A DNA stretch of 64,000 nt from a phage. The stretch lies in NCBI GenBank assembly GCA_012225525.1, contig GCA_012225525.1_3923.1; one strand, written 5' to 3'. The translations under genes and the position numbers were made by a program. Below are positions 2,372 through 59,895 of the stretch, piece after piece; position 1 is the stretch's first letter, and each line of letters opens with the position of its first letter. The notes beneath the pieces were generated by a model that saw only the letters and a list, made by a program, of their open reading frames with translations, had not been told where the DNA came from and made no database searches.

Positions 2372-3412
2372 ATGGAGAAGTACACATTAACAAAGCTTCC
2401 CGATTCAGTTACACATGTCTTTATTGACTCTGACAGCATTGCCTATAAAGGTGCTTGTGTAGTTGAGAAAGCAAAGTATAAATACGTTAATAAACTCACA
2501 GCAGAAGAATCTGAACCATTTGATAATGCGAAAGATGCTGCAAGATGGTTAGCAGACCAGAGAATCCTTGTGGAAGAGCTTGGCCTGACATTTGATGAAG
2601 ATGAATGGGAAAGACAGACTTGGAAAGAAGCTAAGAGTGAAAAAGAAGCTATCATGGCTACTCAACAGGTGCTTCAGGAATGGCTTAAGGTTGTTGGGAA
2701 AGAGAGAACTTGGGTAGGCTATTTAACAGAGAAAGGTGTGCATAAACATAAAGACGTTAAAGGTCTTGAGCACCAATATCAAGGCAACCGTAAAGATGCT
2801 GTCACACCAACACACTTAGTTGCTTGTCGTGAATACCTTCTGTCAAGACCAGAGTTTAAGCTCTTAAAGGGGGGCTTCGAAGCCGATTCAATCGTAATCG
2901 CTAAAGCTGAAAAGATGGGTAAGAAAGCTGCTCTTATGAGTATTGACAAAGACCTTCGACAAGCTGAAGGAACTTATTGTATTGATATGACTTATGAAAA
3001 GTCACCACTAATTTTTATTGCTGACAATAATGTTGGTGATATCTGGGATTGCCCTATCAAATCAAAACCAAAAGCTGCAAAAACAGTTGGCGTAGGTTTT
3101 AAATTCTTGTGTTATCAGGCTGTTGCTGGAGATAATGCAGACAACTACTTCGGCCTAAAAGGTGCTGGTAAAGTAGCTGTGATGAATGCTTTAGAGGGTA
3201 AAGAGACCTACAAAGAGTGTCTTGACGCTATCTATGAACTTTATGCTAAAAAAGATTCTTATACCTATGTGTCATGGGATGGACAGACTGTTACCAAAAC
3301 ACCATTAGAGTTAATGGAACAGCATTTCTGGATAGCATATCAAGAGAGAAATCCAAAAGACAATTTCTCTTTCAAGAAATATAATTGGGAGCCGTGTATG
3401 AATGAAGATTAA
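2372..3412 (+). CDS. 5'-3' exonuclease / flap endonuclease (FEN, RNase H-like)
   Basis: N-terminal HVFIDSDSIAYKG, GGFEADSIVIA and AGDNADNYFGLKGAGKVA motifs typical of PIN/H3TH 5' nucleases. Confidence 0.65.
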   Translation: MEKYTLTKLPDSVTHVFIDSDSIAYKGACVVEKAKYKYVNKLTAEESEPFDNAKDAARWLADQRILVEELGLTFDEDEWERQTWKEAKSEKEAIMATQQVLQEWLKVVGKERTWVGYLTEKGVHKHKDVKGLEHQYQGNRKDAVTPTHLVACREYLLSRPEFKLLKGGFEADSIVIAKAEKMGKKAALMSIDKDLRQAEGTYCIDMTYEKSPLIFIADNNVGDIWDCPIKSKPKAAKTVGVGFKFLCYQAVAGDNADNYFGLKGAGKVAVMNALEGKETYKECLDAIYELYAKKDSYTYVSWDGQTVTKTPLELMEQHFWIAYQERNPKDNFSFKKYNWEPCMNED

Positions 3413-3899
3413 AGGATTTGGCAATTGCCCCACCTACGGTCATTGGGTATCTTTATGTGGGGAAGTTGACCCCACTAAACATTTTGGCTTTGTCTATTTA
3501 GTGCACTGTAAGAAGACTGGACAATATTATATCGGAAAGAAACAGCTTAACAGTGTGACAAAAAGAAAAGTTGCTGGGAAGACTCGGAAGAAGGTAGTCA
3601 CTAAGGAGAGTGATTGGATGACTTACGAGACTTCTTCTGAGTATATTAAAAAAGATATTGAGAGCTTTGGAAAAGAATTTTTTGACTTTTACATCATTCA
3701 GACCTACTACACAAAAGGTGGCCTAGTCTATGGTGAAGCAAACCTTCAACATAAATTCGATGTAATGACAAAAAGGATTGACTCGAAGCTCAGACTCTTC
3801 TACAATGCCAATATTGCAGCAATTAAGTTTATTACTAAAGAAACTTATGAAGATGCTGAAAAAAGAATCCATAAGGTAATGAAAGCAAATTGTGCTTGA
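3402..3899 (+). CDS. GIY-YIG family endonuclease (homing-endonuclease-like)
   Basis: FVYLVHCKKTGQYYIGKK matches GIY-(10 aa)-YIG spacing. Confidence 0.5.
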   Translation: MKIKGFGNCPTYGHWVSLCGEVDPTKHFGFVYLVHCKKTGQYYIGKKQLNSVTKRKVAGKTRKKVVTKESDWMTYETSSEYIKKDIESFGKEFFDFYIIQTYYTKGGLVYGEANLQHKFDVMTKRIDSKLRLFYNANIAAIKFITKETYEDAEKRIHKVMKANCA

Positions 3900-38954: not shown

Positions 38955-39419
38955 TTACTTTGGGTATACACTGTCAAGATAAATGTCAGCTTCCATTCTA
39001 CGTCTGTTTTTCAGACCGTTTGAAGTGACCTTCTTACCTTTGACTGTAACCTTGTTCCACCACTGCATAGCTTCTGCACAACCTACCTTATTACCGGCAT
39101 TGTGGCGCTTGATAAATGTGGAATCCTGCATAGCTGTGATACCGATGTTGTATGTTTCACTTACAAGTGCATCGAACTCATTCTGAGTAGTTGGAACCTT
39201 GATAGCTTTGTTCACTGCTGCAACAAACTTCTCAACATCCGCGAGAAGATACTGTTCAGCTTGTTCAGCAGTAATTTTCATACCCATCTTAACAGGTTTT
39301 CCGTCAATACGGATTGTCCCATACCCGATTGTTGGGATTCCGGCAGAATCTTCGTAAGCCTCTAACTCCAGACCTTCGAAGAACTTAATAGCATCTAAAC
39401 CTTTTCTTGAGAGTTGCAT
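38955..39419 (-). CDS. endolysin, phage lysozyme (GH24 muramidase-like)
   Basis: LELEAYEDSAGIPTIGYGT motif typical of T4/lambda-type lysozymes; 154 aa. Confidence 0.7.
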   Translation of the reverse strand: MQLSRKGLDAIKFFEGLELEAYEDSAGIPTIGYGTIRIDGKPVKMGMKITAEQAEQYLLADVEKFVAAVNKAIKVPTTQNEFDALVSETYNIGITAMQDSTFIKRHNAGNKVGCAEAMQWWNKVTVKGKKVTSNGLKNRRRMEADIYLDSVYPK

Positions 39420-40552
39420 TACGCCTCCCCTGCTGGGTTAACTGTAACTGTTGCTGCATTGGATGTTACAGAGCCACCTGCACCAGTAACTACACAGGTG
39501 TAGCTTCCTGCATCAGCAGCGGTCGCACCTTCTTTGGTGTAAGTTGCAGTAGTTGCATCAAGGATGTCTTCCTCACCTTTCTTCCACTGGTAACCTGTCG
39601 CACCTGTTGCCACAACATTCAGCGTTAAGGTCTCACCTTCATTGATTTCTTGATTGGTTGGCTGTTGAGTGATTACCGGAAGTGCGTTAACAGTAACCGT
39701 TGCAGGGCTAGAAGTGACAGAACCACCTGCACCTGTTACAACGCAAGTGTATGAACCTGCATCTGCTGGCAGAGCACCAGACTTACTATAGGTTGCATCT
39801 GTAGCCGAAGGAATGTCAGAGCCATCTTTCTTCCACTGATAACCTGTTGCACCTGTTGCAGTCACTTCCAAGTTGATGTTTCCACCCTCATTGACGGTCT
39901 GACCAGAAGGTTGCTGTGTAATAACAGGCAGTGCGTTGACAGTAACTGTTGCCGCATCTGAGGTAACACTTGTCCCAGCCTCTCCAGACACAACACAAGT
40001 ATAAGAACCAGCATCAGAAGGTGCTACAGATTGTTTTGTGTAGGTTGCAGATGTGGCGCTAGTGATATCCTCACCATCCTTTTTCCATTGATATCCAGTG
40101 GCATTGGTTGCAATAACGCTTAGGGTAAGTGTATCACCTTCATTTACTGTTTGATTGGTTGGTTGCTGAGTGATTGATGGTGGCTTGATAGCATCCTTCA
40201 ACTTAGCATTCAACATTGAGAATGGTTTAACTCTTGCCAGCCATTCACAATAAACTGTATCAACGTCTTTACCATTGATAATTGCATATTGTAAGTCCAT
40301 GAAGAAGTCAGAAGTTCTCATTTGAGCACCAACGCTGTAAAGCAACTCATCACTAAATGGGACTTTGTAGTCTGGTTTGTAGTCAAACTTCTCAACTTCT
40401 GCAATATCAGCTTCAGGCCAATACGAGCTATAGGTGAGTGGTAAAATAGCCTCTTGATATGTTCTAAAATCATATCTCTTACCAGCCTTTACATTTGCAA
40501 TGAAGCCCTTCACAAACTCTTTGAAGTCTGGGTAAGTCTTTGCTTTAATCAT
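39419..40552 (-). CDS. protein with N-terminal unknown domain and three C-terminal Ig-like repeats
   Basis: Three tandem ~90-aa repeats each with QQPTNQTVNEG...ATGYQWKKDG...DAGSYTCVV (I-set-like pattern). Confidence 0.6.
   Translation of the reverse strand: MIKAKTYPDFKEFVKGFIANVKAGKRYDFRTYQEAILPLTYSSYWPEADIAEVEKFDYKPDYKVPFSDELLYSVGAQMRTSDFFMDLQYAIINGKDVDTVYCEWLARVKPFSMLNAKLKDAIKPPSITQQPTNQTVNEGDTLTLSVIATNATGYQWKKDGEDITSATSATYTKQSVAPSDAGSYTCVVSGEAGTSVTSDAATVTVNALPVITQQPSGQTVNEGGNINLEVTATGATGYQWKKDGSDIPSATDATYSKSGALPADAGSYTCVVTGAGGSVTSSPATVTVNALPVITQQPTNQEINEGETLTLNVVATGATGYQWKKGEEDILDATTATYTKEGATAADAGSYTCVVTGAGGSVTSNAATVTVNPAGEA
39422..40180 (-). repeat. three tandem ~280-bp coding repeats (Ig-like domains)
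   Basis: Repeated nucleotide blocks; antisense ORF 39407..39628 is a by-product. Confidence 0.65.
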
Positions 40553-42177: not shown

Positions 42178-42549
42178 ATGAAAAACAGAACAAACAAAGG
42201 CCAGTTTAAAAAAGGCCAGTCTGGAAACCCATCTGGAAGACCAAAAGGCTCTCGTAACAAAAGCTCACTTGTAAAAGCTCAACTGACCATTGATAATTCT
42301 GCTGAGTTTGCTGCAAAGTTGTTTGAGGCGATTGTTACAAGGGACGCGGCTAAGCTTGCAGAGTTTGGGTTAAACACAGACGACGTAACCATCAAGAGCA
42401 TGATTGAGGTCGGTAAAACTATCATGACCCACTCAGCAGGTGAGATGAAAGCAATTGCAGCAGATACTAAGAAGACTCCTGATAATGGTGGTCAGTCTCA
42501 GACAGATAACAAACCAACGTTCTCTGCTGTTGCAACCCTTAAAAAATAA
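42178..42549 (+). CDS. hypothetical protein with N-terminal GNPSGRPKG motif (possible nucleic-acid binding)
   Basis: KGQSGNPSGRPKGSRNK near N-terminus. Confidence 0.4.
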   Translation: MKNRTNKGQFKKGQSGNPSGRPKGSRNKSSLVKAQLTIDNSAEFAAKLFEAIVTRDAAKLAEFGLNTDDVTIKSMIEVGKTIMTHSAGEMKAIAADTKKTPDNGGQSQTDNKPTFSAVATLKK

Positions 42550-42630: not shown

Positions 42631-44046
42631 ATGAGCGAATTATTTAAACATGCGCACCTTCATGCAGGTCGAACTGAAAATGGTGCTGTAAACCATACTT
42701 CATCAATGTCTACTCTTGTAGACTTTTACAAAGCTGCTGGTTCAAGCCGTAGCAATGTAGAAATCTTACCAGACTTGTTCTACAAAGCTTTGCGTGAGGA
42801 TGTTGATGTTGCAGTTCGTATTTTACTGCATATGCGAGATGTACGAGAAGGCATGGGTGAGCGTAAAGCCTTCAGAACTGTTTTGCTTCAAGCGATTGAA
42901 GATGAAGTTTTAGAGCCTACGCAGGTTCTTCGCATTATGGATAAGATTGCAGAACTTGGTCGTTTTGATGACTTCAAAATCTTTGTAGGTACTCGTTTCG
43001 AGACAGATGCCTTCAAGCATTTAGAAGCAGCATTACTAGACCCTGCAACAGCAGGTTTGGCGGCTAAGTGGTTACCACGAGTCAAACCACGTCATAAGCA
43101 GTTTGTAAAACGTTTCTGCAAGTTTGCCAACTTGAGTGAGAAAGAGTACCGCACACTGTTGTCTGCACTATCTGATACAGTTGAGCAAAAAATCTCTGCT
43201 AATGAGTTTGGTAAGATTGACTACAGTAAGATTCCTTCACTTGCTGCTGCACGTTACCAAAAACTGTTTAACCGTAAAGATGGAGAGCGTTACAAAGCTT
43301 ACATCGAGTCCTTATCAAAAGGTGAGACTAAGATTAACGCTGGTGCTGTTTACCCATACGATGTGATTAAATCTTTCAAGTATGGTAATGCAGATGTTGC
43401 TAATGAGCAGTGGAAAGCACTACCAAACTGGATGGCAGAAGGTGAAAACATCTTGTGTATGTCTGATGTATCAAGTTCAATGTCTTGGGTGAATTTTGGC
43501 TCCATTACTGCTCTGGATATTGGTGTATCACTTGCCTTGTATGTAGCAGAACGCAATACAGGTTGCTTTAAGAATGAGTTGATGGTTTATTCGACAAACC
43601 CTCACTTCATCGAACTGAGTGGTGATTTACGAAACCGTCATCGTCAGGTGATGCGACACGTTGAATATGGCTCAACTAACTTACAAGCAGCTTTTGACCG
43701 CATTCTTGAAACAGGTAAAAGAAACAACTTGACTCAGAAAGATATGCCAAGTAAGCTTATCATCTTCTCCGATATGGAGTTCAATCAGGTTGATGGAGCT
43801 AACGGTCGTACAAACTTTGAAGCAATTCAGAGTAAGTACAAAAAAGCTGGATATGAGATGCCACAACTGGTATTCTGGTACTTAGCAAACCGTAATGGTA
43901 CTTGCGAAGTATCTGTTAAGGATAACGGTGTAGCAATGGTATCAGGGTTCTCTCCAGCCACTTTAAAAGCTCTGCTTGGTGGTGAGAAGTTTGACCCAAT
44001 CAGTGTAATGCTCAAAGCAGTAATGATTGACCGTTATATCTGGTAA
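42631..44046 (+). CDS. von Willebrand factor A (vWA) domain protein with MIDAS motif
   Basis: DVSSSMS (DxSxS) MIDAS motif about residue 280; 471 aa; sits immediately upstream of the tRNA array. Confidence 0.5.
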   Translation: MSELFKHAHLHAGRTENGAVNHTSSMSTLVDFYKAAGSSRSNVEILPDLFYKALREDVDVAVRILLHMRDVREGMGERKAFRTVLLQAIEDEVLEPTQVLRIMDKIAELGRFDDFKIFVGTRFETDAFKHLEAALLDPATAGLAAKWLPRVKPRHKQFVKRFCKFANLSEKEYRTLLSALSDTVEQKISANEFGKIDYSKIPSLAAARYQKLFNRKDGERYKAYIESLSKGETKINAGAVYPYDVIKSFKYGNADVANEQWKALPNWMAEGENILCMSDVSSSMSWVNFGSITALDIGVSLALYVAERNTGCFKNELMVYSTNPHFIELSGDLRNRHRQVMRHVEYGSTNLQAAFDRILETGKRNNLTQKDMPSKLIIFSDMEFNQVDGANGRTNFEAIQSKYKKAGYEMPQLVFWYLANRNGTCEVSVKDNGVAMVSGFSPATLKALLGGEKFDPISVMLKAVMIDRYIW

Positions 44047-44064
44047 AAAGTTTTAAAAAGGGTA

Positions 44065-44093
44065 TTGACAATGTGTTTAATACCCTTTAATAT
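44065..44093 (+). promoter_or_regulatory. sigma70-like promoter for tRNA array, -35 inside hairpin
   Basis: TTGACA-17-TAATAT; flanking inverted repeat AAGGGTATT/AATACCCTT. Confidence 0.5.
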
Positions 44094-44211
44094 GTTCTAC
44101 ATAGAAACGAAATGAGAGCTTTTCTAAGATACTGAAAAATATTTTAAAAAAGTTCTTGACAACCACTAAAAAATAATGTTAAAGTGGTTACATAGAGTTT
44201 GAAAAGTTTAT

Positions 44212-44288
44212 CTCTGTTTAGCTCAGCTTGGTAGAGCGTTCCGTTTGGGGCGGTAAGGCCGGAGGTTCAAGTCCTCCAACAGAGACCA
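44212..44288 (+). tRNA. tRNA-Pro (anticodon TGG)
   Basis: Manual cloverleaf; T-arm GGAGG-TTCAAGT-CCTCC; CCA encoded. Confidence 0.7.
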
Positions 44289-44295
44289 AATTAAT

Positions 44296-44373
44296 GTTCC
44301 AGTAGACAAAATGGTAAAGTCACCACTCTTTCAAAGTGGATATCTGAGGGTTCAAATCCCTTCTGGAACGCCA
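44296..44373 (+). tRNA. tRNA-Glu (anticodon TTC)
   Basis: Acceptor GTTCCAG/CTGGAAC; anticodon loop CTTTCAA. Confidence 0.7.
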
Positions 44374-44463
44374 GTTTTGACAGAAGACCAATTACAGCAA
44401 ACTTAATCTACTCATCTGAAAGTTAATCGGACAAAGAAGATATTTGGTCTGGTCATTAAGAAT

Positions 44464-44540
44464 TGCGGGTATAGAGAAAGGGCGTCTCACATGTCTCATT
44501 AGCATGGTATCGGCAGGTTCGACTCCTGCACCCGCCTCCA
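44464..44540 (+). tRNA. tRNA-like element, anticodon arm unresolved
   Basis: Perfect T-arm GCAGG-TTCGACT-CCTGC and CCA end; internal GTCTCA duplication. Confidence 0.3.
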
Positions 44541-44623
44541 AATTTACAGAAGACCGTTTACAGCAATATTTATTAAATTTTTAGCGGAAAAATTGAAAGA
44601 TACGGTCTGGTAATACTAAACAT

Positions 44624-44700
44624 GGTTAGGAAGCACATAAGGTATGTGCGGTCGCCTGTTAAGCGAATGGCACAGGGTTCGAATCCCTGACTAACCGCCA
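44624..44700 (+). tRNA. tRNA-Asn (anticodon GTT)
   Basis: Anticodon loop CTGTTAA; T-arm CAGGG-TTCGAAT-CCCTG. Confidence 0.7.
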
Positions 44701-44769
44701 AATTTAGGAGAGAAGCGATTGCTCACCGATTTGTAAGGTGCAAGTCCTTAGCCTGAATAGAAATCAAAT

Positions 44770-44857
44770 GTGTCGTTATCCCGTAGATGGTAGCGGTGGG
44801 GACTGTAAATCCCTTGTCATTGAGACTCGGTAGGTTCGACTCCTACACGGCACACCA
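44770..44857 (+). tRNA. tRNA-Tyr (anticodon GTA), long variable arm
   Basis: Anticodon loop CTGTAAA; 88 nt. Confidence 0.7.
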
Positions 44858-44863
44858 AATAAA

Positions 44864-44941
44864 GGTTATGTAGTTTAATCTGGTTAAAATACTCCCCTGT
44901 CACGGGAGATGATGAGGGTTCAAATCCCTTCATAACCGCCA
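44864..44941 (+). tRNA. tRNA-Asp (anticodon GTC)
   Basis: Acceptor GGTTATG/CATAACC; anticodon stem-loop CTCCC-CTGTCAC-GGGAG. Confidence 0.75.
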
Positions 44942-45370
44942 ATTTTGAGAGGGCTATTTAGCCCCTCCCTTAAAGAGTTCTTACGAGTATTCTTTAAAGG
45001 AGCAGAAGACCAAATACAGCAAGAATGTATGAAATTTCAAGCCAATTCAATTTTGAAAATTTAAAACTTGGTCTGGCTCAACAAATTTACAGAAGACCGT
45101 TTACAGCAAAACTTAAACAATCTATTTCTCCGGTAAAGAAAAGGCGAAGGTTCGATTCCTTCACTCGGCAGATGTCGAGTTGGTGTAATGGTAGCACTTA
45201 AGATGATAAACAACGGTCTGGTAATTATCTTTGTAGATAAGTTATTAAGCTTACCTGTGAGTATGCGACCACAAAGGGTGAAAGGGTAAATTCTAGATTT
45301 AAACCCAAAAAGGCACATCGCTACAGACCTTAAGCAAGTCTGGGTAGCTTATCTACAAAGATAATTTAAT

Positions 45371-45446
45371 GGAAGTGTAGCAGAATGGTGATGCGGCAGA
45401 CTTTTAATCTGACAGGCGATGGGTTCGAATCCCTCCACTTCTACCA
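45371..45446 (+). tRNA. tRNA-Lys (anticodon TTT)
   Basis: Anticodon loop CTTTTAA; T-loop TTCGAAT. Confidence 0.65.
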
Positions 45447-45524
45447 AATTCACCCTTAACTGAGAAACACCTGCGCGGCTGGAAACACCCACTCAACAGT
45501 TTCTCTAACTAGGGTACTTATTCT

Positions 45525-45601
45525 GGTTCAGTCGCAGATAAGGTAATGCAAGGGTCTCATAAGCCCTATGAATGTGGGTTCGATTCCCATCTGAACCTCC
45601 A
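45525..45601 (+). tRNA. tRNA-Met or Ile2 (anticodon CAT)
   Basis: Acceptor GGTTCAG/CTGAACC; anticodon loop CTCATAA. Confidence 0.7.
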
Positions 45602-45602
45602 A

Positions 45603-45678
45603 GCTGGTATAGTTAAGAAGGTTATAACACTCCCCTGATAAGGGAACATCGGTGGTTCGATTCCACCTACCAGTACCA
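45603..45678 (+). tRNA. tRNA-Ile (anticodon GAT)
   Basis: Anticodon loop CTGATAA; T-arm GGTGG-TTCGATT-CCACC. Confidence 0.7.
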
Positions 45679-45693
45679 ATTTCAATAAAGTTG

Positions 45694-45722
45694 TTGACAT
45701 TGAGATGTGACTACTTTATAGT
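45694..45722 (+). promoter_or_regulatory. sigma70-like promoter inside tRNA array
   Basis: TTGACA-17-TATAGT. Confidence 0.5.
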
Positions 45723-45924
45723 AACCTTAGTTTTCGTTGCGTAGCGTCTATTTTGCAAATTTAAAATAAATGCAAACGACAATGTTTTTCTGGCAGTAGC
45801 TTGATAGGCTAAACACCAGTGAGGTCTTCCAATCCCTCATCAAAGAATTTGGCGTACTCGCCCACGGTATGATTAATAAGGTGGGCATCTTTAAGGGCTT
45901 TCTAAGAGAGTCTTTAAAGATAAT

Positions 45925-46001
45925 GCACCCTTAGTTCAATTGGATAGAGCAACGGTCTTCTAAATCGTTAGTTACAGGTTCGAATCCTGTAGGGTGTACC
46001 A
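45925..46001 (+). tRNA. tRNA-Arg (anticodon TCT)
   Basis: Anticodon loop CTTCTAA; T-arm ACAGG-TTCGAAT-CCTGT. Confidence 0.7.
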
Positions 46002-46143
46002 AATAGTTAGCAGATTACTTAGACGGCCTTAGCGGGTCTTCCTGTAGGGAGGTGGTCTGTATCTCATGTTTTCCAGAACATGTAAATAATCTGAGAAGAA
46101 GCTTGACAGTGTTGAGATAACAGGGTAAGCTTCGAATTATAAT

Positions 46144-46226
46144 ATGGGACGATGTTAAGACTCTAAGGCATGAGCAACGGCCTCCAAAACCGTTTCAAAG
46201 GGGTTCAACTCCTCCGTCCCATGCCA
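46144..46226 (+). tRNA. tRNA, probably Trp (anticodon CCA), atypically long D region
   Basis: Perfect acceptor ATGGGAC/GTCCCAT, CCA end, candidate loop CTCCAAA; 83 nt. Confidence 0.4.
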
Positions 46227-46239
46227 AAGTCTTATTAGG

Positions 46240-46327
46240 GGTAGGTAGCGGCTAATGGCAGCCAAACAGTCTTGAAAACTGTTGCCACTGTAGAGATACG
46301 GTGAGGGTTCGACTCCTTTACTTACCG
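46240..46327 (+). tRNA. tRNA-Ser (anticodon TGA), long variable arm
   Basis: Anticodon stem-loop ACAGT-CTTGAAA-ACTGT. Confidence 0.7.
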
Positions 46328-46483
46328 CCTAATAAGATTTACTCCGTCCATGCTTGTTCGCATTGTCGGTTTATCCCTCGTGTATTGTCGTACACTGTCA
46401 AAGCACCTAGTAGGTGTCACGGAGAAGAGATAATATCAAGCTCTCCAAAGGTTCTAGTCACCGGATTAAACAAGACTATGCAA

Positions 46484-46503
46484 AGACCTATTTAGGTCTT
46501 TTT
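46484..46503 (+). terminator. intrinsic terminator within tRNA region
   Basis: AGACCT-ATTT-AGGTCT followed by TTTT. Confidence 0.5.
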
Positions 46504-46582
46504 AGAGGGCTTCTAAGGTTATTACAGCTTGTTGTGGAACCTTGTTGCTTAGGTTCTTAGAAGTTCTCTAAAAAGATTTAAT

Positions 46583-46660
46583 GGGAGATTGACGGTAATT
46601 GGTAAACCTACCATCCTTAGAAGTTGGTGTTTGAGGGTTCGAATCCCTTGTCTCCCACCA
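46583..46660 (+). tRNA. tRNA with anticodon TAG (Leu-type) but short variable loop
   Basis: Anticodon loop CTTAGAA; discriminator A; 5-nt variable loop. Confidence 0.55.
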
Positions 46661-46667
46661 AATTAAT

Positions 46668-46743
46668 GCAGGTGTAGCAAAATGGTTATGCGGCTGACTC
46701 TTAATCAGTAAGACGATGGGTTCAATTCCCTCCACCTGTACCA
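46668..46743 (+). tRNA. tRNA-Lys (anticodon CTT)
   Basis: Anticodon loop CTCTTAA. Confidence 0.65.
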
Positions 46744-46749
46744 AACAAT

Positions 46750-46825
46750 GGGGTCATAGTTTATATGGTTAAAATTCGAGTTTTGCAAACTTGGGAACTG
46801 AGTTCAATTCTCAGTGACTCCACCA
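46750..46825 (+). tRNA. tRNA-Ala (anticodon TGC)
   Basis: Anticodon loop TTTGCAA; T-arm CTGAG-TTCAATT-CTCAG. Confidence 0.7.
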
Positions 46826-46831
46826 ATTAGT

Positions 46832-46906
46832 GCATCCATAGTTTAAACGGGAAAATTACAGTCTTCCAAACTGAGGTTGAGGGTTCGATTCCCTCTGGAT
46901 GCTCCA
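46832..46906 (+). tRNA. tRNA-Gly (anticodon TCC)
   Basis: Acceptor GCATCCA/TGGATGC; anticodon loop CTTCCAA. Confidence 0.7.
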
Positions 46907-46913
46907 AATTAAT

Positions 46914-46989
46914 GCTCCTATCGTATAATTGGCTATTACGGTTGCCTTGTAAGTAACTTATCAGGGTTCGAATCCTTGTGGGAGCACCA
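46914..46989 (+). tRNA. tRNA-Thr (anticodon TGT)
   Basis: Anticodon stem-loop GTTGC-CTTGTAA-GTAAC. Confidence 0.7.
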
Positions 46990-47085
46990 ATTTAGAGGTC
47001 AAGTGAAAGACCGCTTTGAGTCAACTGAAGACCGTAACAAATCCCACGGAGTTGAGTTAGCGGAACAACTTCAGACCTCTTTCAT
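46990..47085 (+). ncRNA. candidate structured spacer RNA
   Basis: Closing inverted repeat AGAGGTC...GACCTCT enclosing TGAAGACCGTAACAAATCC. Confidence 0.3.
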
Positions 47086-47160
47086 ACTCGCTTAGTTTAT
47101 ATGGTAAAACATCACCCTTACAAGATGAAGAAAAAGGTTCAAGTCCTTTAGTGAGTACCA
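47086..47160 (+). tRNA. tRNA-Val (anticodon TAC)
   Basis: Anticodon loop CTTACAA; T-arm AAAGG-TTCAAGT-CCTTT. Confidence 0.6.
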
Positions 47161-47161
47161 T

Positions 47162-47239
47162 GTTCCAGTATCCCAATTGGCAGAGGATGCAAGCTCAAAC
47201 CTTGTACTAGTGACGGTTCGAATCCGTCTTGGAACACCA
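47162..47239 (+). tRNA. tRNA with anticodon CAA (Leu-type) but short variable loop
   Basis: Anticodon stem-loop GCAAG-CTCAAAC-CTTGT; 6-nt variable loop; discriminator A. Confidence 0.55.
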
Positions 47240-47255
47240 ATTTTAGGAGAACACT

Positions 47256-47363
47256 ATGAGTAATAAATCAATTGCAAAAAAGTTTATAGCGTCATTCAAA
47301 AACAGGCGTAAAAACAACTCTTGTGAAAAACTGTATGGTGTTCTTGTAGGTAAGCAGGATTAG
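47256..47363 (+). CDS. very small ORF (35 aa) with strong RBS inside tRNA array
   Basis: TAGGAGAACACTATG; stop overlaps 5' end of the next tRNA. Confidence 0.2.
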   Translation: MSNKSIAKKFIASFKNRRKNNSCEKLYGVLVGKQD

Positions 47364-47429
47364 TTCAAATGGATAGAGCAACAGTCTACGAAGCTGTTAA
47401 TAGGGGTTCGAATCCCTTATCCTGCGCCA
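47354..47429 (+). tRNA. tRNA-Arg (anticodon ACG)
   Basis: Perfect acceptor GCAGGAT/ATCCTGC; anticodon loop CTACGAA. Confidence 0.7.
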
Positions 47430-47448
47430 ATTTAAAGAGGCTATTTAA

Positions 47449-48006
47449 ATGAGATACTTGAAGTATGCTTCATGGATTTTCTTAGCTTTGCTAGAGCCAT
47501 TGGCAGCAATCTTAGCAGTTATCTTAGCACCTTTTGTAGTTCCATTTTACAGTGAGAAGAAAGGACACTTACCTTTTGGATTCAGATGGATGGAGACATA
47601 TGACAACCCGATTGATGGTGATGAAGGTCACGTTAAAAGATGGGCTAAGATTAGAAAGATTGGTAAGCTTGGTGTCTATTTGCAGAGAGTTGGATGGCTC
47701 TGGAGAAACAAAGCTTATAACTTCTCTTACCATGTGTTAGGAAGAGATGTAAAAGATGTTACTAAGTGGAAAGGCAATATCAACGTAAGTTCTGACCCTG
47801 AAGATAATCAGACAGGTTATCTCCTAATGTGGAACAGTAATGCTTGGGGATTATTCGCTTTTATCCCATCAATTAAAGTCTTTGGTAAACAATTCTACTG
47901 GAGAATTTATGTTGGATGGAAGCTAAAAAGTGTTGTCCCAGAAGAAAGAGCATTCTCAAGGGAAAGAGTTATGTTGGCATTCTTTATTCATCCACTGAGA
48001 AAGTAA
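47449..48006 (+). CDS. membrane protein embedded in tRNA array
   Basis: 185 aa; N-terminal hydrophobic segments. Confidence 0.5.
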   Translation: MRYLKYASWIFLALLEPLAAILAVILAPFVVPFYSEKKGHLPFGFRWMETYDNPIDGDEGHVKRWAKIRKIGKLGVYLQRVGWLWRNKAYNFSYHVLGRDVKDVTKWKGNINVSSDPEDNQTGYLLMWNSNAWGLFAFIPSIKVFGKQFYWRIYVGWKLKSVVPEERAFSRERVMLAFFIHPLRK

Positions 48007-48014
48007 AGATTTAA

Positions 48015-48090
48015 AGGGGATTAGTTTACAAGGTTAAAACCTCGGTCTTTGAAATCGAAGAAGTTGGTTCAATTCCAACATCCCCCGCCA
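48015..48090 (+). tRNA. tRNA-Gln (anticodon TTG)
   Basis: Anticodon stem-loop TCGGT-CTTTGAA-ATCGA; T-arm GTTGG-TTCAATT-CCAAC. Confidence 0.65.
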
Positions 48091-48092
48091 AT

Positions 48093-48171
48093 GCTCCATT
48101 ACTCCAATTGGCAGAGAGGCCAGACTTAAAATCTGTGTTATGTATCGGTTCGAATCCGATATGGAGTACCA
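48093..48171 (+). tRNA. tRNA with anticodon TAA (Leu-type) but short variable loop
   Basis: Anticodon loop CTTAAAA; 7-nt variable loop; discriminator A. Confidence 0.55.
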
Positions 48172-48176
48172 AATTT

Positions 48177-48252
48177 AGCGGTATAGCATAACTGGCAATG
48201 CAGCAGTCTCTGAAGCTGTCTTATTAAGGTTCAAATCCTTATGCCGCTGCCA
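48177..48252 (+). tRNA. tRNA-Gln (anticodon CTG)
   Basis: Anticodon loop CTCTGAA; T-arm TAAGG-TTCAAAT-CCTTA. Confidence 0.65.
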
Positions 48253-48283
48253 CTTCTAAGGATTCTTACGAGAGTCCTTAAAT

Positions 48284-48359
48284 GTGGCCTTATCATAAAT
48301 GGTAATGACCCATGCTGTGAACATGGTCTATACGGGTTCAAATCCCGTAGGTCACCCCA
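48284..48359 (+). tRNA. tRNA-His (anticodon GTG)
   Basis: Anticodon stem-loop CCATG-CTGTGAA-CATGG. Confidence 0.7.
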
Positions 48360-48364
48360 ATTTA

Positions 48365-48439
48365 TAGTCCAAGTAGCTTATATGGTTAAAGCGCGTGTCT
48401 GAAAAACATGAGAAGAGGGTTCAAATCCCACTGGACTAC
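48365..48439 (+). tRNA. tRNA-Phe (anticodon GAA), CCA not encoded
   Basis: Acceptor TAGTCCA/TGGACTA; anticodon loop CTGAAAA. Confidence 0.65.
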
Positions 48440-48457
48440 CAATTTCAAAGGTGCTTA

Positions 48458-49192
48458 ATGAAAGAGATGACAGAACAAGGTAAGGAGATTTTTAATCTCT
48501 TAAAAACTGGTAAAGGGTTTTCTAACCCCCTTATTACTGGTGCAGCAGTTCTCGGTGGAACCGTAGCTGCCTCTACATCACTTGTAAGCTCTATTAGTTC
48601 TGTATCAGACCCTACAGTAAAGGATAAGCTTGTTGCTGCTGGACTTACAACAGTTCTGCTTAACAGCTTTACCACGAGTCTGACAAGCACTACATCAACT
48701 ACCAAAACACTGACAGATTACGGTCAAAAGTCCATTGATGAGTTTTCATCACGTATGCAGGTAGCAAAAGGTTATTCTAATGTTATGGGTGCAGCAGGTG
48801 AACAAGTTGGCTGTACACCATTTAGTGGTATTATGGGTGTTGCTACAGAGTATGGTCAAAAAGCTATTGATATGATTAACAGTGCACTAGACGGTGTTAA
48901 TGATGTATTAAGTGACTTACAAGACGCTATTGACAAAGGTCTTGATACTATTTCTGATTTAGCTAACCAAGCTGTTAGTAAGATTAATGAAGGTATCTCG
49001 AAGATTACAGCTTATGCAGATGAAGTTGTGCAGATGATTGAAGAAGAAGCTGCCCTTATTGCAGAGTACCTTAAAACGAATATCAATGGGTTCTTAGCAG
49101 GTATCTTACCAGACTGGTTTGATGATGCTTGTAAAACTGGTGTAATTGACACTATTGCAACACCAGAAATGAAGAACGCATTACAGAAATAA
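48458..49192 (+). CDS. Ser/Thr-rich hypothetical protein
   Basis: ATG 48458 after AAAGG; track start 48395 lies inside tRNA-Phe. Confidence 0.5.
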   Translation: MKEMTEQGKEIFNLLKTGKGFSNPLITGAAVLGGTVAASTSLVSSISSVSDPTVKDKLVAAGLTTVLLNSFTTSLTSTTSTTKTLTDYGQKSIDEFSSRMQVAKGYSNVMGAAGEQVGCTPFSGIMGVATEYGQKAIDMINSALDGVNDVLSDLQDAIDKGLDTISDLANQAVSKINEGISKITAYADEVVQMIEEEAALIAEYLKTNINGFLAGILPDWFDDACKTGVIDTIATPEMKNALQK

Positions 49193-49194
49193 AT

Positions 49195-49287
49195 GGAAGA
49201 TTAACCCTAAAAGGTAAGGGAGCAGTTTGCTAAACTGCCAGTAGCTGAGAAATCGGTGTACCAGTTCAAGTCTGGTATCTTCCTCCA
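49195..49287 (+). tRNA. tRNA-Ser (anticodon GCT), long variable arm
   Basis: Perfect acceptor GGAAGAT/ATCTTCC; anticodon stem-loop GCAGT-TTGCTAA-ACTGC. Confidence 0.75.
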
Positions 49288-49291
49288 ATTT

Positions 49292-49367
49292 GAATCCGTG
49301 ACAGAAATGGCTATGTGCCTGTCTGCAAAACAGGTTTATAAGGGTTCGAGTCCCTTCGGATTCTCCA
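49292..49367 (+). tRNA. tRNA-Cys (anticodon GCA)
   Basis: Perfect acceptor GAATCCG/CGGATTC; anticodon stem-loop CCTGT-CTGCAAA-ACAGG. Confidence 0.75.
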
Positions 49368-49406
49368 AGTTATTTTACTCTCTCTCTCAATTAAAATAAT
49401 AATAAT

Positions 49407-49466
49407 GCCCTGCTATAAGTATTCTTCCTTTCGCTACCGAAGAGTATTTTTAGACAGGGCTTTTTT
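49407..49466 (+). terminator. intrinsic terminator closing the tRNA array
   Basis: GCCCTG...CAGGGC stem followed by TTTTTT. Confidence 0.6.
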
Positions 49467-49591
49467 ACAGAGTTATACTTTATAAGAAGTCTTATACAGT
49501 ATGTCTCTGACGTACATTGTGGTTTCTCCTTGACGGTCTCTGTACCGTCTTTTTTAAGGGGAAACATGGTTAACTATTTGGAGAAAACATA

Positions 49592-49792
49592 ATGAGCGAG
49601 ACCGTTTATAAAGAACTTTATGAAGCTAATAAAAAGCTAGAATTTATGCAGAATACTATCATGGCAATTGCAGACAGATTGTCTGTAGCAACAGGTATTG
49701 ATATTAAAGAAGCATCTATGGATGCACTTCTTGATGCTGTTGATGCAAAGTTCGAAGTTAAGAAAGAAGAGACTGCTACAGACTCTGAATAA
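49592..49792 (+). CDS. small protein upstream of terminase (possible small terminase subunit or DNA-binding partner)
   Basis: 66 aa; position only. Confidence 0.35.
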   Translation: MSETVYKELYEANKKLEFMQNTIMAIADRLSVATGIDIKEASMDALLDAVDAKFEVKKEETATDSE

Positions 49793-49813
49793 TTCTATTT
49801 GCGGAGGTGCTTA

Positions 49814-51415
49814 ATGGACTTAAATGCTGTTAAGCAGAAGCGAGTGGAAGATGTTAGGAAAGTCCTAGCTGGAGAGTTGGGGCTTTCTGATGAAGTAAAA
49901 GAAATTATCAAATCATTCGGTAAAGACCCCTCTAAATTCCTTCCAACTCAAATTCTGACTTTATTAAGATACACACCAGACCAAGTTCGCCTTATCTTTA
50001 AATTGATGACTGATAAGAATTATGTAGCCCCTCAGCCGGGTTCTCAAGAGGTCTTTTTAAACACTAATGCTGACTTGGTTCTTTATGGTGGTGCTGCTGG
50101 TGCTGGTAAAACTGCTGCATTGTTAATGGACTCTTTAAGATTTATTGAAGACCCTAACTATAATGCTGTATATTTCCGTCGAAATACAACACAGCTACAA
50201 GGTGGTTTATGGCCTGCTGCAAAGAAACTATTTGGTAAGTTTGGTGGGATTCCTCACGAGCAGAAAATGACTATCACATTCCCTTCTGGGGCAACTATCA
50301 AGTTTACCTACCTAGAACTTGAAAAGCACGCTGAAGGTCATCAGGGTATTGAATACTCAGCTATCTACTTTGACGAAGGTACACACTTCTCTGCTTCACA
50401 GATTTCATACCTACAGACCCGTCTACGTTCTGGTGCTGAAGGCGACTCATACATGAAGATTTCTATGAACCCAGATAGAGACCACTTCATTTATGATTGG
50501 GTAGAACCCTTCTTAGATGAAGAAGGTTACCCAGACCCTGAGAAGTGCGGTCGTATTCGTTGGTATGTTATGAATGACGGTGTGATGGTTTCTGATTGGG
50601 AAAGAGACAAGATTCTTGAAATGTTCCCTCTTGAGATTCCTCAGACATACACCTTCATCTCTGGTACGATTGATGATAACCCAATTCTTGACTTCTTAGA
50701 ACCTAAATATCGTGGTAAGCTGGAAAACAACACCCCTGTAAACGTTGCAAGACTTCGTTTCGGTAACTGGAAGGCTCGTGCAGAAGGTTCAAACTATTGG
50801 CAAAGACAATGGTGTGAAATTGTTGATTCACTCCCAGAAGATGTATTCGATGTCAGAGCATGGGACTTAGCAGCAACTTTACCATCTGAGATTAACCCTA
50901 ATCCAGACTGGACAGCAGGTGTTAAGATGGGTAAATCTAAAAAAGACGGTTGCTATTATATCATTGATGTAGTAAGATTTAGAGATAGACCCTCTGGAGT
51001 CGAAACACAAATTAATTTGACTGCTGAAAGTGACGGTAAGCGAACTGGTATTTTTATCCCTCAAGACCCAGGCGCTGCTGGTAAATCCTACGCAACATCC
51101 CTCATCAGGAAACTTGCCGAGAAAGGTTATCGAGCAAGAGCTAAACCAACAAATAAAGACAAAGTTACCCGATTTGCGGGGTTTTCTGCTGCTTCTGAAG
51201 CTGGACTTGTAAAAGTCTTGAGAGGTAGTTGGAATGAAGCTTACTTTCAAGAGCTTGAAGGCTTTTGTGGTGATGGTAAAACTAAAGATGACCAAGTGGA
51301 TGCTACCAGTGATGCTTTCAACAGTCTTAACGAAGTTAAATTATTCAAGCCACCATCAATGGGTGCTCACACAGATTTAGTGAGAGGAAACCCATATGAG
51401 GGGCTTAGACGTTGA
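49814..51415 (+). CDS. terL: terminase large subunit
   Basis: Walker A LYGGAAGAGKTAA; ATG 49814 after GGAGGT; followed by portal. Confidence 0.8.
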   Translation: MDLNAVKQKRVEDVRKVLAGELGLSDEVKEIIKSFGKDPSKFLPTQILTLLRYTPDQVRLIFKLMTDKNYVAPQPGSQEVFLNTNADLVLYGGAAGAGKTAALLMDSLRFIEDPNYNAVYFRRNTTQLQGGLWPAAKKLFGKFGGIPHEQKMTITFPSGATIKFTYLELEKHAEGHQGIEYSAIYFDEGTHFSASQISYLQTRLRSGAEGDSYMKISMNPDRDHFIYDWVEPFLDEEGYPDPEKCGRIRWYVMNDGVMVSDWERDKILEMFPLEIPQTYTFISGTIDDNPILDFLEPKYRGKLENNTPVNVARLRFGNWKARAEGSNYWQRQWCEIVDSLPEDVFDVRAWDLAATLPSEINPNPDWTAGVKMGKSKKDGCYYIIDVVRFRDRPSGVETQINLTAESDGKRTGIFIPQDPGAAGKSYATSLIRKLAEKGYRARAKPTNKDKVTRFAGFSAASEAGLVKVLRGSWNEAYFQELEGFCGDGKTKDDQVDATSDAFNSLNEVKLFKPPSMGAHTDLVRGNPYEGLRR

Positions 51416-58542: not shown

Positions 58543-59895
58543 ATGTGGAATCCAATTGTTAATGTAGATATTACATTGAACACCGCAGGAACTACAAGAG
58601 AAGGTTTTGGGCTGCCACTATTTTTAGCTTCAACAGATAACTTTGAAGAAAGAGTCCGTGGTTACACTTCCTTAACTGAAGTTGCTGAAGATTTCGATGA
58701 AAATTCTGCTGCATATAAGGCTGCTAAACAACTTTGGAGTCAGACTCCTAAAGTAACTCAGCTTTATATTGGTAGACGTGCTATGCAGTACACTGTATCA
58801 ATTCCTGATGAGGTTGCTGAGAGCACCGACTATTCTTTAACTGTAGCTGTGAGCGGTGGAGTTTCTCAGCCATTCCAGTACACTTCACAGTCAGAAGATA
58901 CTGCTGAGAAGGTGCTACAGCAGCTTAAAACTCAGATTGAAGCAGAACCTTCTGTAAAAGACCTTGTTACTGTCAATGTAACTGGTGCTGGCGGTTCAGC
59001 AACAATGGTAATCACCAAAGCTGGTGTCAACGACTTCGTGAAGGTTACTACTACAGCACAAACAGTGTCAATTGCAAGCACAACTGCTGACACAGCATCG
59101 ACTGCTCTGGCAGCTATTGAAGCGTATTCAACTGACTGGTATTTCATTGCAGCAGAAGACAGAACTCAACAGTTTGTCTTAGCAATGGCTTCTGAGATTC
59201 AAGCTCGTAAGAAGATTTTCTTTACAGCTAACTCCGATGTAGCAGCACTGCAAGGTACAGAATTAGCGAGTGCAAATGATGTTCCAGCACAGCTTGCTAA
59301 GAATCAGTACACTCGTACAGTTTGCTTGTGGCATCACACAGCAGCAGAAGACTATCCAGAAATGGCTTATATTGCTTATGGTGCTCCGTATGATGCAGGT
59401 TCAATTGCTTGGGGTAACGCACAGTTAACTGGTGTAGCTGCTTCTCTACAGCCATCTAACCAGAGACCTCTGACAAGTATTCAGAAGTCAGCTTTAGATG
59501 CACGTCACTGTAACTTTATTGACCTTGATGGTGGTGTTCCAGTGGTTCGTAGAGGGATTACTTCTGGTGGGGAATGGATTGATATCGTCCGTGGTGTTGA
59601 CTGGTTAGAATCAGACCTGAAAACTTCTCTGAGAGACTTGCTAATTAACCAGAAGGGTGGTAAGATTACTTATGATGATACTGGTATTACCCGTATTCGT
59701 CAAGTCATTGAAACCTCTCTGCAAAGAGCAGTCAACAGAAACTTCCTGTCATCTTACACAGTTAATGTTCCTAAAGCCTCTCAAGTTGCTTTGGCAGACA
59801 AGAAAGCTCGTATCCTGAAAGATGTTACCTTCGCAGGTATCTTGGCAGGGGCTATCTTGGATGTTGACTTGAAAGGTACAGTGGCTTACGAATAA
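58543..59895 (+). CDS. tail sheath protein
   Basis: 450 aa immediately upstream of a 148-aa tube-sized gene. Confidence 0.5.
   Translation: MWNPIVNVDITLNTAGTTREGFGLPLFLASTDNFEERVRGYTSLTEVAEDFDENSAAYKAAKQLWSQTPKVTQLYIGRRAMQYTVSIPDEVAESTDYSLTVAVSGGVSQPFQYTSQSEDTAEKVLQQLKTQIEAEPSVKDLVTVNVTGAGGSATMVITKAGVNDFVKVTTTAQTVSIASTTADTASTALAAIEAYSTDWYFIAAEDRTQQFVLAMASEIQARKKIFFTANSDVAALQGTELASANDVPAQLAKNQYTRTVCLWHHTAAEDYPEMAYIAYGAPYDAGSIAWGNAQLTGVAASLQPSNQRPLTSIQKSALDARHCNFIDLDGGVPVVRRGITSGGEWIDIVRGVDWLESDLKTSLRDLLINQKGGKITYDDTGITRIRQVIETSLQRAVNRNFLSSYTVNVPKASQVALADKKARILKDVTFAGILAGAILDVDLKGTVAYE

Follow-up and report, generated by a model that had tools for sequence, protein, structure and literature searches.

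Two long protein-coding genes and a 35-codon open reading frame (ORF) lie between tRNA genes in a 64,000-nucleotide (nt) stretch of phage DNA (NCBI GenBank assembly GCA_012225525.1, contig GCA_012225525.1_3923.1). We call this stretch the window; it belongs to a Felixounavirus, that is, a Felix O1-type phage. To the following reading of the whole locus we give a probability of roughly 55%: it is a standard tRNA region organized as a tRNA-punctuated operon, in which the 185-amino-acid (aa) DUF7338 product is an envelope or lysis protein, the 244-aa DUF7217 product is a virion protein, and the 35-codon mini-ORF is optional. The two long genes would be embedded in the array through how the region is built and expressed, not through action on tRNA. 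The original prediction had suggested that they may be tRNA-related (modification, repair, or counter-measures against anticodon nucleases) or moron insertions; judged from sequence and predicted fold, nothing supports a tRNA-directed biochemical function of either protein.

The elements concerned are as follows.

44212-49367, + strand: array of 26 tRNA genes (ARAGORN; Rfam agrees)
47240-47353, + strand: optional 114-nt spacer between tRNA-Leu(CAA) and tRNA-Arg(ACG)
47256-47363, + strand: 35-codon ORF (phrog_13848) for a basic peptide, with AGGAG 7 nt upstream of its ATG
47354-47429, + strand: tRNA-Arg(ACG), into which the mini-ORF extends; the DUF7338 start codon is 19 nt further on
47449-48006, + strand: DUF7338 gene (PF24027, phrog_2143, Felix O1 ORF48), 185 aa, Shine-Dalgarno sequence AAGAGG at 47435-47440
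48015-48090, + strand: tRNA-Gln(TTG), 8 nt past the DUF7338 stop; it follows DUF7338 in rV5-like phages too
48458-49192, + strand: DUF7217 gene (PF23854, phrog_2114, Felix O1 ORF49), 244 aa, Shine-Dalgarno sequence AAAGGTG at 48447-48453
49195-49287, + strand: tRNA-Ser(GCT), 2 nt past the DUF7217 stop

Both long genes lie at the coordinates first proposed for them, and the properties then ascribed to their products are there: DUF7338 has a hydrophobic segment at residues 9-31, and DUF7217 (predicted mass, 25.6 kDa) is rich in Thr (10.2%) and Ser (9.0%), as well as Ala (9.8%). DUF7338 matches its Pfam family over residues 1-184 with 210 bits (cut-off, 27; E = 2.8e-62) and phrog_2143 with E = 3.2e-81; DUF7217 matches full-length with 297.8 bits (cut-off, 29; E = 8.6e-89) and phrog_2114 with E = 1.6e-111. 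Neither ORF is disrupted in any related locus tested (24/24 and 20/20 intact), and third codon positions hold most of the variable sites: 43/13/118 over the three positions for DUF7338 and 46/21/141 for DUF7217, whose ratio of nonsynonymous to synonymous substitution rates (dN/dS) is 0.09, versus 0.012 for terminase. Because they are intact, belong to Pfam and PHROG families, and vary in this way, both long ORFs are real genes under purifying selection. The original prediction had named absence of conservation in related phages as grounds for giving it up; both long ORFs are strongly conserved. The profile searches and synteny comparison it proposed, once run, returned the full-length family matches above and showed both genes in conserved contexts, with DUF7217 upstream of terminase in the four Ounavirinae-type lineages examined.

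The locus itself is already known: it is an ordinary Felix O1 region, sequenced many times and in GenBank since 2003. Megablast of positions 47200-49400 matched 292 phage records, 207 of them at 95-99% identity; the latter are essentially all Felix O1-like phages of Escherichia, Salmonella, and Shigella, including Felix O1 itself (95.3%). The RefSeq entry for Felix O1 names the long ORFs ORF48 ("phage conserved protein," NP_944875) and ORF49 ("hypothetical protein," NP_944879), with identical flanking tRNAs, and the VpaE1 GenBank record calls both genes "hypothetical." At the protein level, both are ∼95-99% identical to other Felixounavirus copies (96.2% for Felix O1 ORF48). A literature search found no paper that mentions DUF7338 or DUF7217, and the DRT7/Bas63 preprint and the wV8 paper contain nothing relevant to the two genes. 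What our analysis adds to existing annotation is only the cross-family tRNA linkage of DUF7338 and its relatives in lysis cassettes.

DUF7338 and DUF7217: contexts and probable roles

The single hydrophobic segment of DUF7338 is strong (KD19, 2.44 at residues 9-27), giving the protein the one transmembrane (TM) helix that is the minimum for the holin class. An AlphaFold (AF2) model from an alignment of 27 relatives has a predicted local distance difference test score (pLDDT) of 94 and consists of a TM helix (residues 2-33) and, after it, an alpha/beta domain. The alignment is invariant at W9, P28, T50, D52, G57, W83, W85, R86, N87, Y90, G98, G109, G123, R152, G156, W157, and K158, of which T50, D52, R86, N87, Y90, R152, and K158 form a polar set. 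A fold search of the PDB with this model gave no match (best E = 0.35), Foldseek against BFVD found uncharacterised phage proteins only, and a PDB sequence-profile search returned only coiled-coil or flavivirus M noise; an "envelope protein" label among the BFVD matches is an automatic name. DUF7338 would be a single-pass inner-membrane protein: its charged N terminus and long hydrophobic helix suggest a signal-anchor, which would place the conserved, new-fold alpha/beta domain in the periplasm.

Tblastn with DUF7338 found 563 phage records. About 215 are Felix-like (≥90% identity); the remainder are T4-like phages of Klebsiella, Escherichia, Enterobacter, Cronobacter, Salmonella, and Aeromonas, and a few jumbo phages. 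At ∼50 loci with at least 55% identity, spanning Ounavirinae, Vequintavirinae, and several T4-like genera, DUF7338 lies ≤1.1 kb downstream of a same-strand tRNA in all but two: one has no tRNA within 6 kb (L038), and in the other the gene is cut by the contig end (L036). Felix-like, rV5-like, Aeromonas-type, and Cronobacter-type phages have it within the array, and JS98-, RB43-, and KP15-type phages have it directly after the tRNA cluster; at three further loci, at 34% identity, a tRNA is 16-266 nt upstream. The neighbouring tRNAs vary by lineage (Asp/Ser in L028; Phe/Met in L044-47).

Some Felixounaviruses and rV5-like phages, the window not among them, carry an optional 76-80-aa gene, phrog_14202, that overlaps the DUF7338 start codon. 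Copies in phage P54 (EC6/Z31 type; L002, 1749-1991) and TH18 (L006, 4705-4935) are 33% identical (E = 6e-9), and DUF7338 may be half of a two-gene cassette with phrog_14202. The arrays of Felix-like phages are collinear with those of rV5-like phages (72-88% nt identity); this, together with the shared phrog_14202, argues that the tRNA linkage of DUF7338 is at least partly due to shared descent or exchange of array segments. By their sequences, tRNA arrays look like shared recombining modules that can carry genes between phage families.

Distant DUF7338 relatives, of the same Pfam family at 30-34% identity, occur on 35-60 kb contigs without nearby tRNAs. At nine nonredundant loci of this kind an endolysin gene either adjoins DUF7338 or is separated from it by one or two genes; these endolysins fall into three PHROGs and include lysozymes of the signal-arrest-release (SAR) type. 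The type-A cassette has the order 1-TM protein, 2-TM holin-like protein, DUF7338, endolysin. Since distant relatives sit in lysis cassettes beside endolysins, DUF7338 is most likely an envelope or lysis-associated membrane protein acting in the control or execution of lysis, a role proposed from gene context. It would travel as a cassette attached to tRNA clusters in large virulent phages, where the lysis genes are dispersed. The same relatives explain the "holin" label that a few GenBank records give it.

DUF7217 is a small family: an exhaustive profile search yielded 79 clusters, nearly all of 220-290 aa. Tblastn found 582 records, ∼255 of them Ounavirinae and 327 below 60% identity; the latter include Erwinia phages (44-46%), and nearly all the others among those listed are Ackermannviridae. 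In every Ounavirinae-type lineage examined, DUF7217 lies 0.4-1 kb upstream of the large terminase gene. That is the case in Felixounavirus and in an Erwinia phage (46% identity), where it comes just after the last tRNA; a metagenomic relative (39% identity) has the order Ro-like gene, 26 tRNAs, DUF7217, small ORF, and large terminase subunit gene (TerL). Among rV5-like phages, DUF7217 is present in two loci (L090/L091) and missing at the same inter-tRNA site in TH18. The 445-aa protein that precedes terminase in TH18 was considered as a long DUF7217 on the strength of a phrog_289 match and shows no real similarity; L090/L091 have a Gad2-family protein as its counterpart. In the four lineages examined, tRNA-Ser(GCT) is the tRNA closest to DUF7217. 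It is 2 nt downstream in the window and in L088/L089, ∼275 nt downstream with a 40-aa ORF between them in L090/L091, and directly ahead of the gene in the Erwinia phage; this reversed order led us to reject a rule that DUF7217 is always followed by tRNA-Ser(GCT). A GTG-started version of DUF7217 (48395, 265 aa; phage pinkbiff, L003, 2696-3493) was likewise rejected, as its start lies inside tRNA-Phe.

The Ackermannviridae proteins are clear members of the DUF7217 family (E = 4e-93 and 4e-102) at 27-29% identity, and are encoded within the structural module, with the capsid gene on one side and gp3 on the other, and without tRNAs nearby. In LIMEstone1, electrospray ionization tandem mass spectrometry of virions detected ORF129, a 25.03-kDa "unknown structural protein" encoded two ORFs from gp3, which has a ViI virion counterpart according to the same paper (PMC3296691). 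The JA15 homologue of DUF7217 (25.08 kDa) agrees with ORF129 in position and mass. Felix O1 Gp49 itself has been listed as a structural protein (PMC3185647). The AlphaFold model of DUF7217 (pLDDT, 75) has a Ser/Thr-rich N-terminal region and then a bundle of 40- to 45-residue helices; Foldseek against the PDB returned generic helical-bundle or BAR-like matches only (E ≥ 0.07). Hydrophobicity is borderline in the window (KD19, 1.62), and the Erwinia and Ackermannviridae homologues have polar, Ser- and Thr-rich sequence at the corresponding place; because the weak hydrophobic N-terminal stretch is not conserved, "putative membrane protein" labels for DUF7217 are unsupported. We suggest that DUF7217 is probably a soluble virion protein encoded at the head of the packaging and morphogenesis module, and a candidate low-copy or internal virion protein common to Ounavirinae and Ackermannviridae. 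The tRNA genes would then have accreted around it.

Several observations weigh against this reading of the locus. For DUF7217, LIMEstone1 ORF129 was identified from two peptides (PMC3296691), and Felix O1 Gp49 was assigned to a 51-kDa band, taken to be sheath-like "by synteny and mass" (PMC3185647). A 450-aa ORF that follows the head genes (58543-59895) fits a sheath better than the 25.6-kDa ORF49 does, and the mismatch between band and ORF makes the Gp49 virion report uncertain: a numbering slip or a dimer stable in sodium dodecyl sulfate could account for it. The overview and conservation parts of the Bas63 cryo-electron microscopy (cryo-EM) paper name no protein from the DUF7217 position. 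For DUF7338, the domain after the helix is very basic (isoelectric point, 9.9), and its topology is read from the charge pattern only; some relatives follow tail-fibre or tail-fibre-assembly genes (L057, L058, L076, L086) or precede the tail sheath gene, the P2 moron slot (L075), and the tail-fibre-assembly and pre-sheath contexts fit an exclusion or moron role. The endolysin gene of the window (phrog_7; 38955-39419, − strand) is 8 kb from DUF7338, type-A cassettes already hold a canonical 2-TM holin candidate, and T4-like phages that carry DUF7338 presumably have their own T holin as well. For the operon, promoter- and terminator-like sites are consensus matches whose count (23) is not above the shuffle expectation (17.7 ± 4.7).

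Alternative explanations

DUF7338 could instead be an accessory host-takeover, exclusion, or anti-defence membrane protein (Sie-type, in the manner of T4 Imm and Sp or P2 fun(Z)) in a tRNA region that serves as an accessory or anti-defence island. This would suit a single-pass membrane protein with relatives in the classic moron slots listed above, exchanged between families (copies in Felix-like phages and in T4-like or rV5-like phages share ∼70% nt identity) and found in the company of counter-defence genes: a Ro60-like anti-Ppl gene, the tRNAs, a Gad2-family protein (L090/L091), and NAMPT (TH18). For such a protein, though, conservation is unusually high (57-61% aa identity across families, with invariant polar motifs and low nonsynonymous change), no PADLOC or other anti-defence family matches, and the nine lysis-cassette contexts point elsewhere; we consider this proposal rather unlikely. 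We are more doubtful that DUF7338 is the Felix O1-type holin itself, a class III, gpT-like protein combining a single TM helix with a large domain in the periplasm. The endolysin of the window is soluble, with neither a SAR helix nor an adjacent holin, and therefore needs a holin, which the Felix O1 paper could not identify (PMC3185647). DUF7338 has a topology like that of T4 T, lies directly upstream of endolysin genes in several small phages, and is labelled "holin" in phage P54, Citrobacter HP1, and GEC_vB_B1. Those labels come without evidence, however, and a holin would more typically belong to a late lysis unit than to a tRNA operon. Among other small ORFs, the window encodes several with 1-2 TM segments. 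Searches for the T-holin family (Phage_holin_T) gave no Pfam match besides DUF7338 at E ≤ 1 and no PDB fold match at E < 0.35. This want of similarity to gpT, the coexistence with T, and the separate 2-TM candidate in type-A cassettes are why DUF7338 is probably not the holin. A bolder version of the lysis reading, which we likewise hold to be doubtful, makes DUF7338 an unrecognised new-fold lysis-control or holin-type family coupled to tRNA operons in Felix O1-, rV5-, and T4-like phages. If true, its dose and timing would be set by tRNA-precursor transcription and processing by RNase P and RNase E, and the lysis or envelope programme would be tied to the module for the phage's translational capacity.

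A functional link to tRNA, in which DUF7338 and perhaps DUF7217 counter tRNA-targeting toxins or anticodon nucleases or handle phage tRNAs, would account for the same-strand position of DUF7338 within 1.1 kb of tRNAs in three phage families and at the three 34% loci, for its staying in the array though the neighbouring tRNAs differ, and for the proximity of tRNA-Ser(GCT) to DUF7217; the Ro60-like gene upstream, moreover, is an experimentally shown counter-defence gene in Bas63 (10.1101/2024.10.10.617714). We nonetheless judge this explanation very unlikely. Neither protein matches an RNA or tRNA enzyme family in Pfam, NCBIfam, or PADLOC, and no such fold was found for DUF7338 (PDB profile; Foldseek against PDB and BFVD) or DUF7217 (Foldseek against PDB only), so that similarity to RNA-binding, nuclease, ligase, kinase, or modification families is absent by sequence and by fold; matches to ZorA, apolipoprotein, and tape-measure proteins were discarded as compositional helical-repeat noise. 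DUF7338 is membrane-anchored, and DUF7217 has virion homologues encoded in the Ackermannviridae structural module with no tRNA nearby. About 30 distant DUF7338 members have no tRNA within 6 kb, many of them in lysis cassettes, and the linkage is explicable by descent or array-segment exchange. The moron suggestion fits only loosely: DUF7338 behaves like a mobile accessory cassette across families. In the strict sense, a moron has its own promoter and terminator and is sporadic among close relatives; here the gaps to the flanking tRNAs (19 and 8 nt for DUF7338, 16 and 2 nt for DUF7217) leave neither gene room for such signals, and with ∼215 records at ≥90% identity for DUF7338 and ∼255 Ounavirinae records for DUF7217, the genes are sporadic only across families.

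Expression of the array and the 35-codon ORF

All tRNAs and ORFs of the array are on one strand (+). The DUF7338 ATG is 19 nt from the end of tRNA-Arg and its stop 8 nt from tRNA-Gln; the DUF7217 ATG is 16 nt from tRNA-Phe and its stop 2 nt from tRNA-Ser(GCT). CCA is encoded in 25 of the 26 tRNAs and is usually followed by A/T-rich sequence (AATT or ATTT). Candidate transcription signals lie at either end of the array:

44065-44185, + strand: two sigma-70-like promoter matches (10/12 each; consensus only) upstream of the first tRNA
49532-49549, + strand: first convincing intrinsic-terminator-like hairpin with T-run after the array (consensus match)

A further promoter-like site is at 45694. 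No convincing + strand terminator-like site was found in the array before 49532, and no promoter or terminator matches flank either long ORF.

The spacing, the encoded CCA, and the promoter and terminator positions fit a single processed transcript. The array would be read as one long precursor from the promoters near 44.1 kb to the terminator near 49.54 kb, with RNase P cutting at tRNA 5′ ends and an RNase E-type activity cutting in the A/U-rich sequence after the encoded CCA. Because the ORFs are only 2-19 nt from the flanking tRNAs, tRNA processing would free both mRNAs, each with its Shine-Dalgarno site, a form of "tRNA punctuation." Co-transcription of the proteins with tRNAs, as first proposed, is thus plausible from strand, spacing, and promoter- and terminator-like sites, while the tRNA-related role attached to it finds no family or fold match. 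A literature search for Felixounavirus transcriptomics returned nothing usable.

The 35-codon ORF is as originally described, with a strong ribosome-binding site (AGGAG) and an end inside tRNA-Arg(ACG): its TAG (47361-47363) is 10 nt inside the tRNA gene, which starts at 47354, so RNase P cleavage at 47353/47354 would leave its message without a stop codon. Among the relatives sampled, the site has at least four alleles: a 114-nt spacer with the ORF (the window and seven others), a spacer of 5-6 nt (12 loci), a 178-nt spacer with an unrelated 53-codon ORF (2 loci), and loss of tRNA-Arg(ACG) (4 loci); the L028 array is differently arranged. The 114-nt spacer occurs in only 34 records of the phage collection, 23 of them at 80-90% identity, which indicates that it diverges faster than its flanks. 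The RNA of the spacer folds better than shuffled versions (z = −2.55), and a predicted 12-bp stem (47247-47258 with 47334-47345), kept in all alleles via three one-sided compatible changes, sequesters the Shine-Dalgarno sequence and AUG of the mini-ORF.

An origin of these ORFs by chance, or as annotation artefacts, within tRNA spacers is highly improbable. For the long ORFs it is ruled out by family membership, intactness, and codon-position bias. For the mini-ORF, which is short and A-rich, stops inside a tRNA, has its start signals buried in a conserved stem, and belongs to a rare, fast-evolving spacer, there is something to be said for it; against it, the frame is open in all 8 copies (6 distinct ORF alleles) with AGGAG kept, 9 of 16 variable sites are at third positions, and phrog_13848 matches with E = 7e-18. 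Over 15 allele pairs, the ratio of nonsynonymous to synonymous polymorphism (pN/pS) is mostly ∼0.3-0.5 (range, ∼0.07-1.3). Together these signs of coding are weak, and go weakly beyond chance. In our view the mini-ORF is dispensable, whether it is an optional micro-gene or just an open frame within a structured spacer RNA.

The spacer between tRNA-Thr and tRNA-Val (46990-47085, + strand) forms a long hairpin (z = −3.6; 0 of 200 shuffles fold as well) and is 77% identical to the rV5-like spacer (L090, 3083-3200; L006, 4553-4669); a small RNA or a conserved element for processing may lie here. A segment of ∼95 nt upstream of tRNA-Ser(TGA) (46143-46237, + strand) has 77% identity to the equivalent spacer of L088 and a subthreshold tRNA-Sec-like Rfam match (23 bits), and 45113-45163 (+ strand), in the 429-nt gap after tRNA-Asp, has a partial tRNA-like match (22 bits); both may be decayed or noncanonical tRNA-like genes.

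Neighbouring genes and comparison with known systems

Directly upstream of the array is the Ro60-like gene:

42631-44046, + strand: Ro60/TROVE-like protein (DUF2828 + DUF7788; phrog_850, "RNA-binding protein")

A Ro60-like gene is upstream of the array in the distant locus L088 too. The Bas63 homologue of the window's gene, gp130, counters the Ppl defence system according to the PhageMaP preprint, which speculates that some array "tRNAs" may be Y-like RNAs (10.1101/2024.10.10.617714); Rfam detected no Y-RNA family within 43500-50000. In rV5-like phages, a 452-aa protein of the Pfam family Gad2 (anti-Gabija, PF26128), with weak nucleotidyltransferase similarity, is encoded between the array and terminase (L090, 6847-8205; L091, 4633-5991), and TH18 has NAMPT at the opposite array end (L006, 1-511). 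The tRNA region resembles an island of accessory or counter-defence genes.

Beside the endolysin gene, a 377-aa gene (39419-40552, − strand) best matches the "tail protein" phrog_3995, with "major tail protein" and Hoc-like head-decoration matches as well; its product is probably the decoration protein that, according to the Bas63 cryo-EM paper, is encoded away from the structural module and usually misannotated as a tail protein. Two small genes could encode the small terminase subunit: one for a 123-aa DUF5681 protein (42178-42549, + strand), which opens the rightward transcription unit, and one for a conserved 66-aa protein (phrog_4397; 49592-49792, + strand; dN/dS, 0.03) immediately upstream of the large terminase gene. 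Among public records, PV390658 (P54), an 88-kb Felix O1-like genome, is filed under Tequatrovirus.

The value of these findings lies in better hypotheses for two "hypothetical proteins" in 563 and 582 phage records, many of them therapy candidates. DUF7338 gains a testable envelope or lysis role, and its predicted fold has no solved relative.

In Felix O1 and >200 other Felixounavirus genomes, the genes, their order, and the flanking tRNAs are all as in the window. Felix O1 differs in having three HNH endonuclease genes in the array, which the window lacks, and in lacking the tRNA-Arg(TCT) of the window. The HNH genes (1017-1502, 1990-2382, and 3300-3713 of our Felix O1 locus, L001) correspond to 45601-45603, 45925-46001, and 46906-46914 of the window; at two of these sites the window tRNAs are only 1-7 nt apart, and at the remaining one the window has tRNA-Arg(TCT). 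Because HNH genes sit between Felix O1 tRNAs and are absent from the window, the array is an insertion hotspot. ARAGORN also finds tRNA-Met, tRNA-Ser(TGA), and tRNA-Ser(GCT) in Felix O1, which are present but unannotated in its RefSeq record. Free-standing HNH homing endonucleases (Felix O1 ORF44, ORF45, and ORF47; T4 segB) are likewise ORFs between tRNA genes; unlike them, the two long ORFs of the window do not encode nucleases, occur throughout the genus instead of sporadically, and evolve under strong purifying selection.

Transcripts punctuated by tRNAs are familiar from the mitochondrial punctuation model, the Escherichia coli thrU-tyrU-glyT-thrT-tufB operon, and the T4 tRNA region with its trna.1-.4 ORFs. 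As in these, coding sequence in the window abuts tRNAs on one strand, and processing would set the mRNA ends; in contrast to mitochondria, bacterial RNase P and RNase E would act, and processing is here proposed from the sequence. The LIMEstone1 ORF129 and ViI-like proteins resemble the window's DUF7217 in full-length family membership and in mass (∼25 kDa), and differ from it in their 27-29% identity, in the absence of nearby tRNAs, and in an N-terminal region that is not hydrophobic. Finally, T4 holin T, RI, and Sp each have one N-terminal TM helix and a sizeable C-terminal domain, as does DUF7338; it differs from them in lacking sequence or fold similarity, in coexisting with T, and in having no adjacent endolysin gene in the window.

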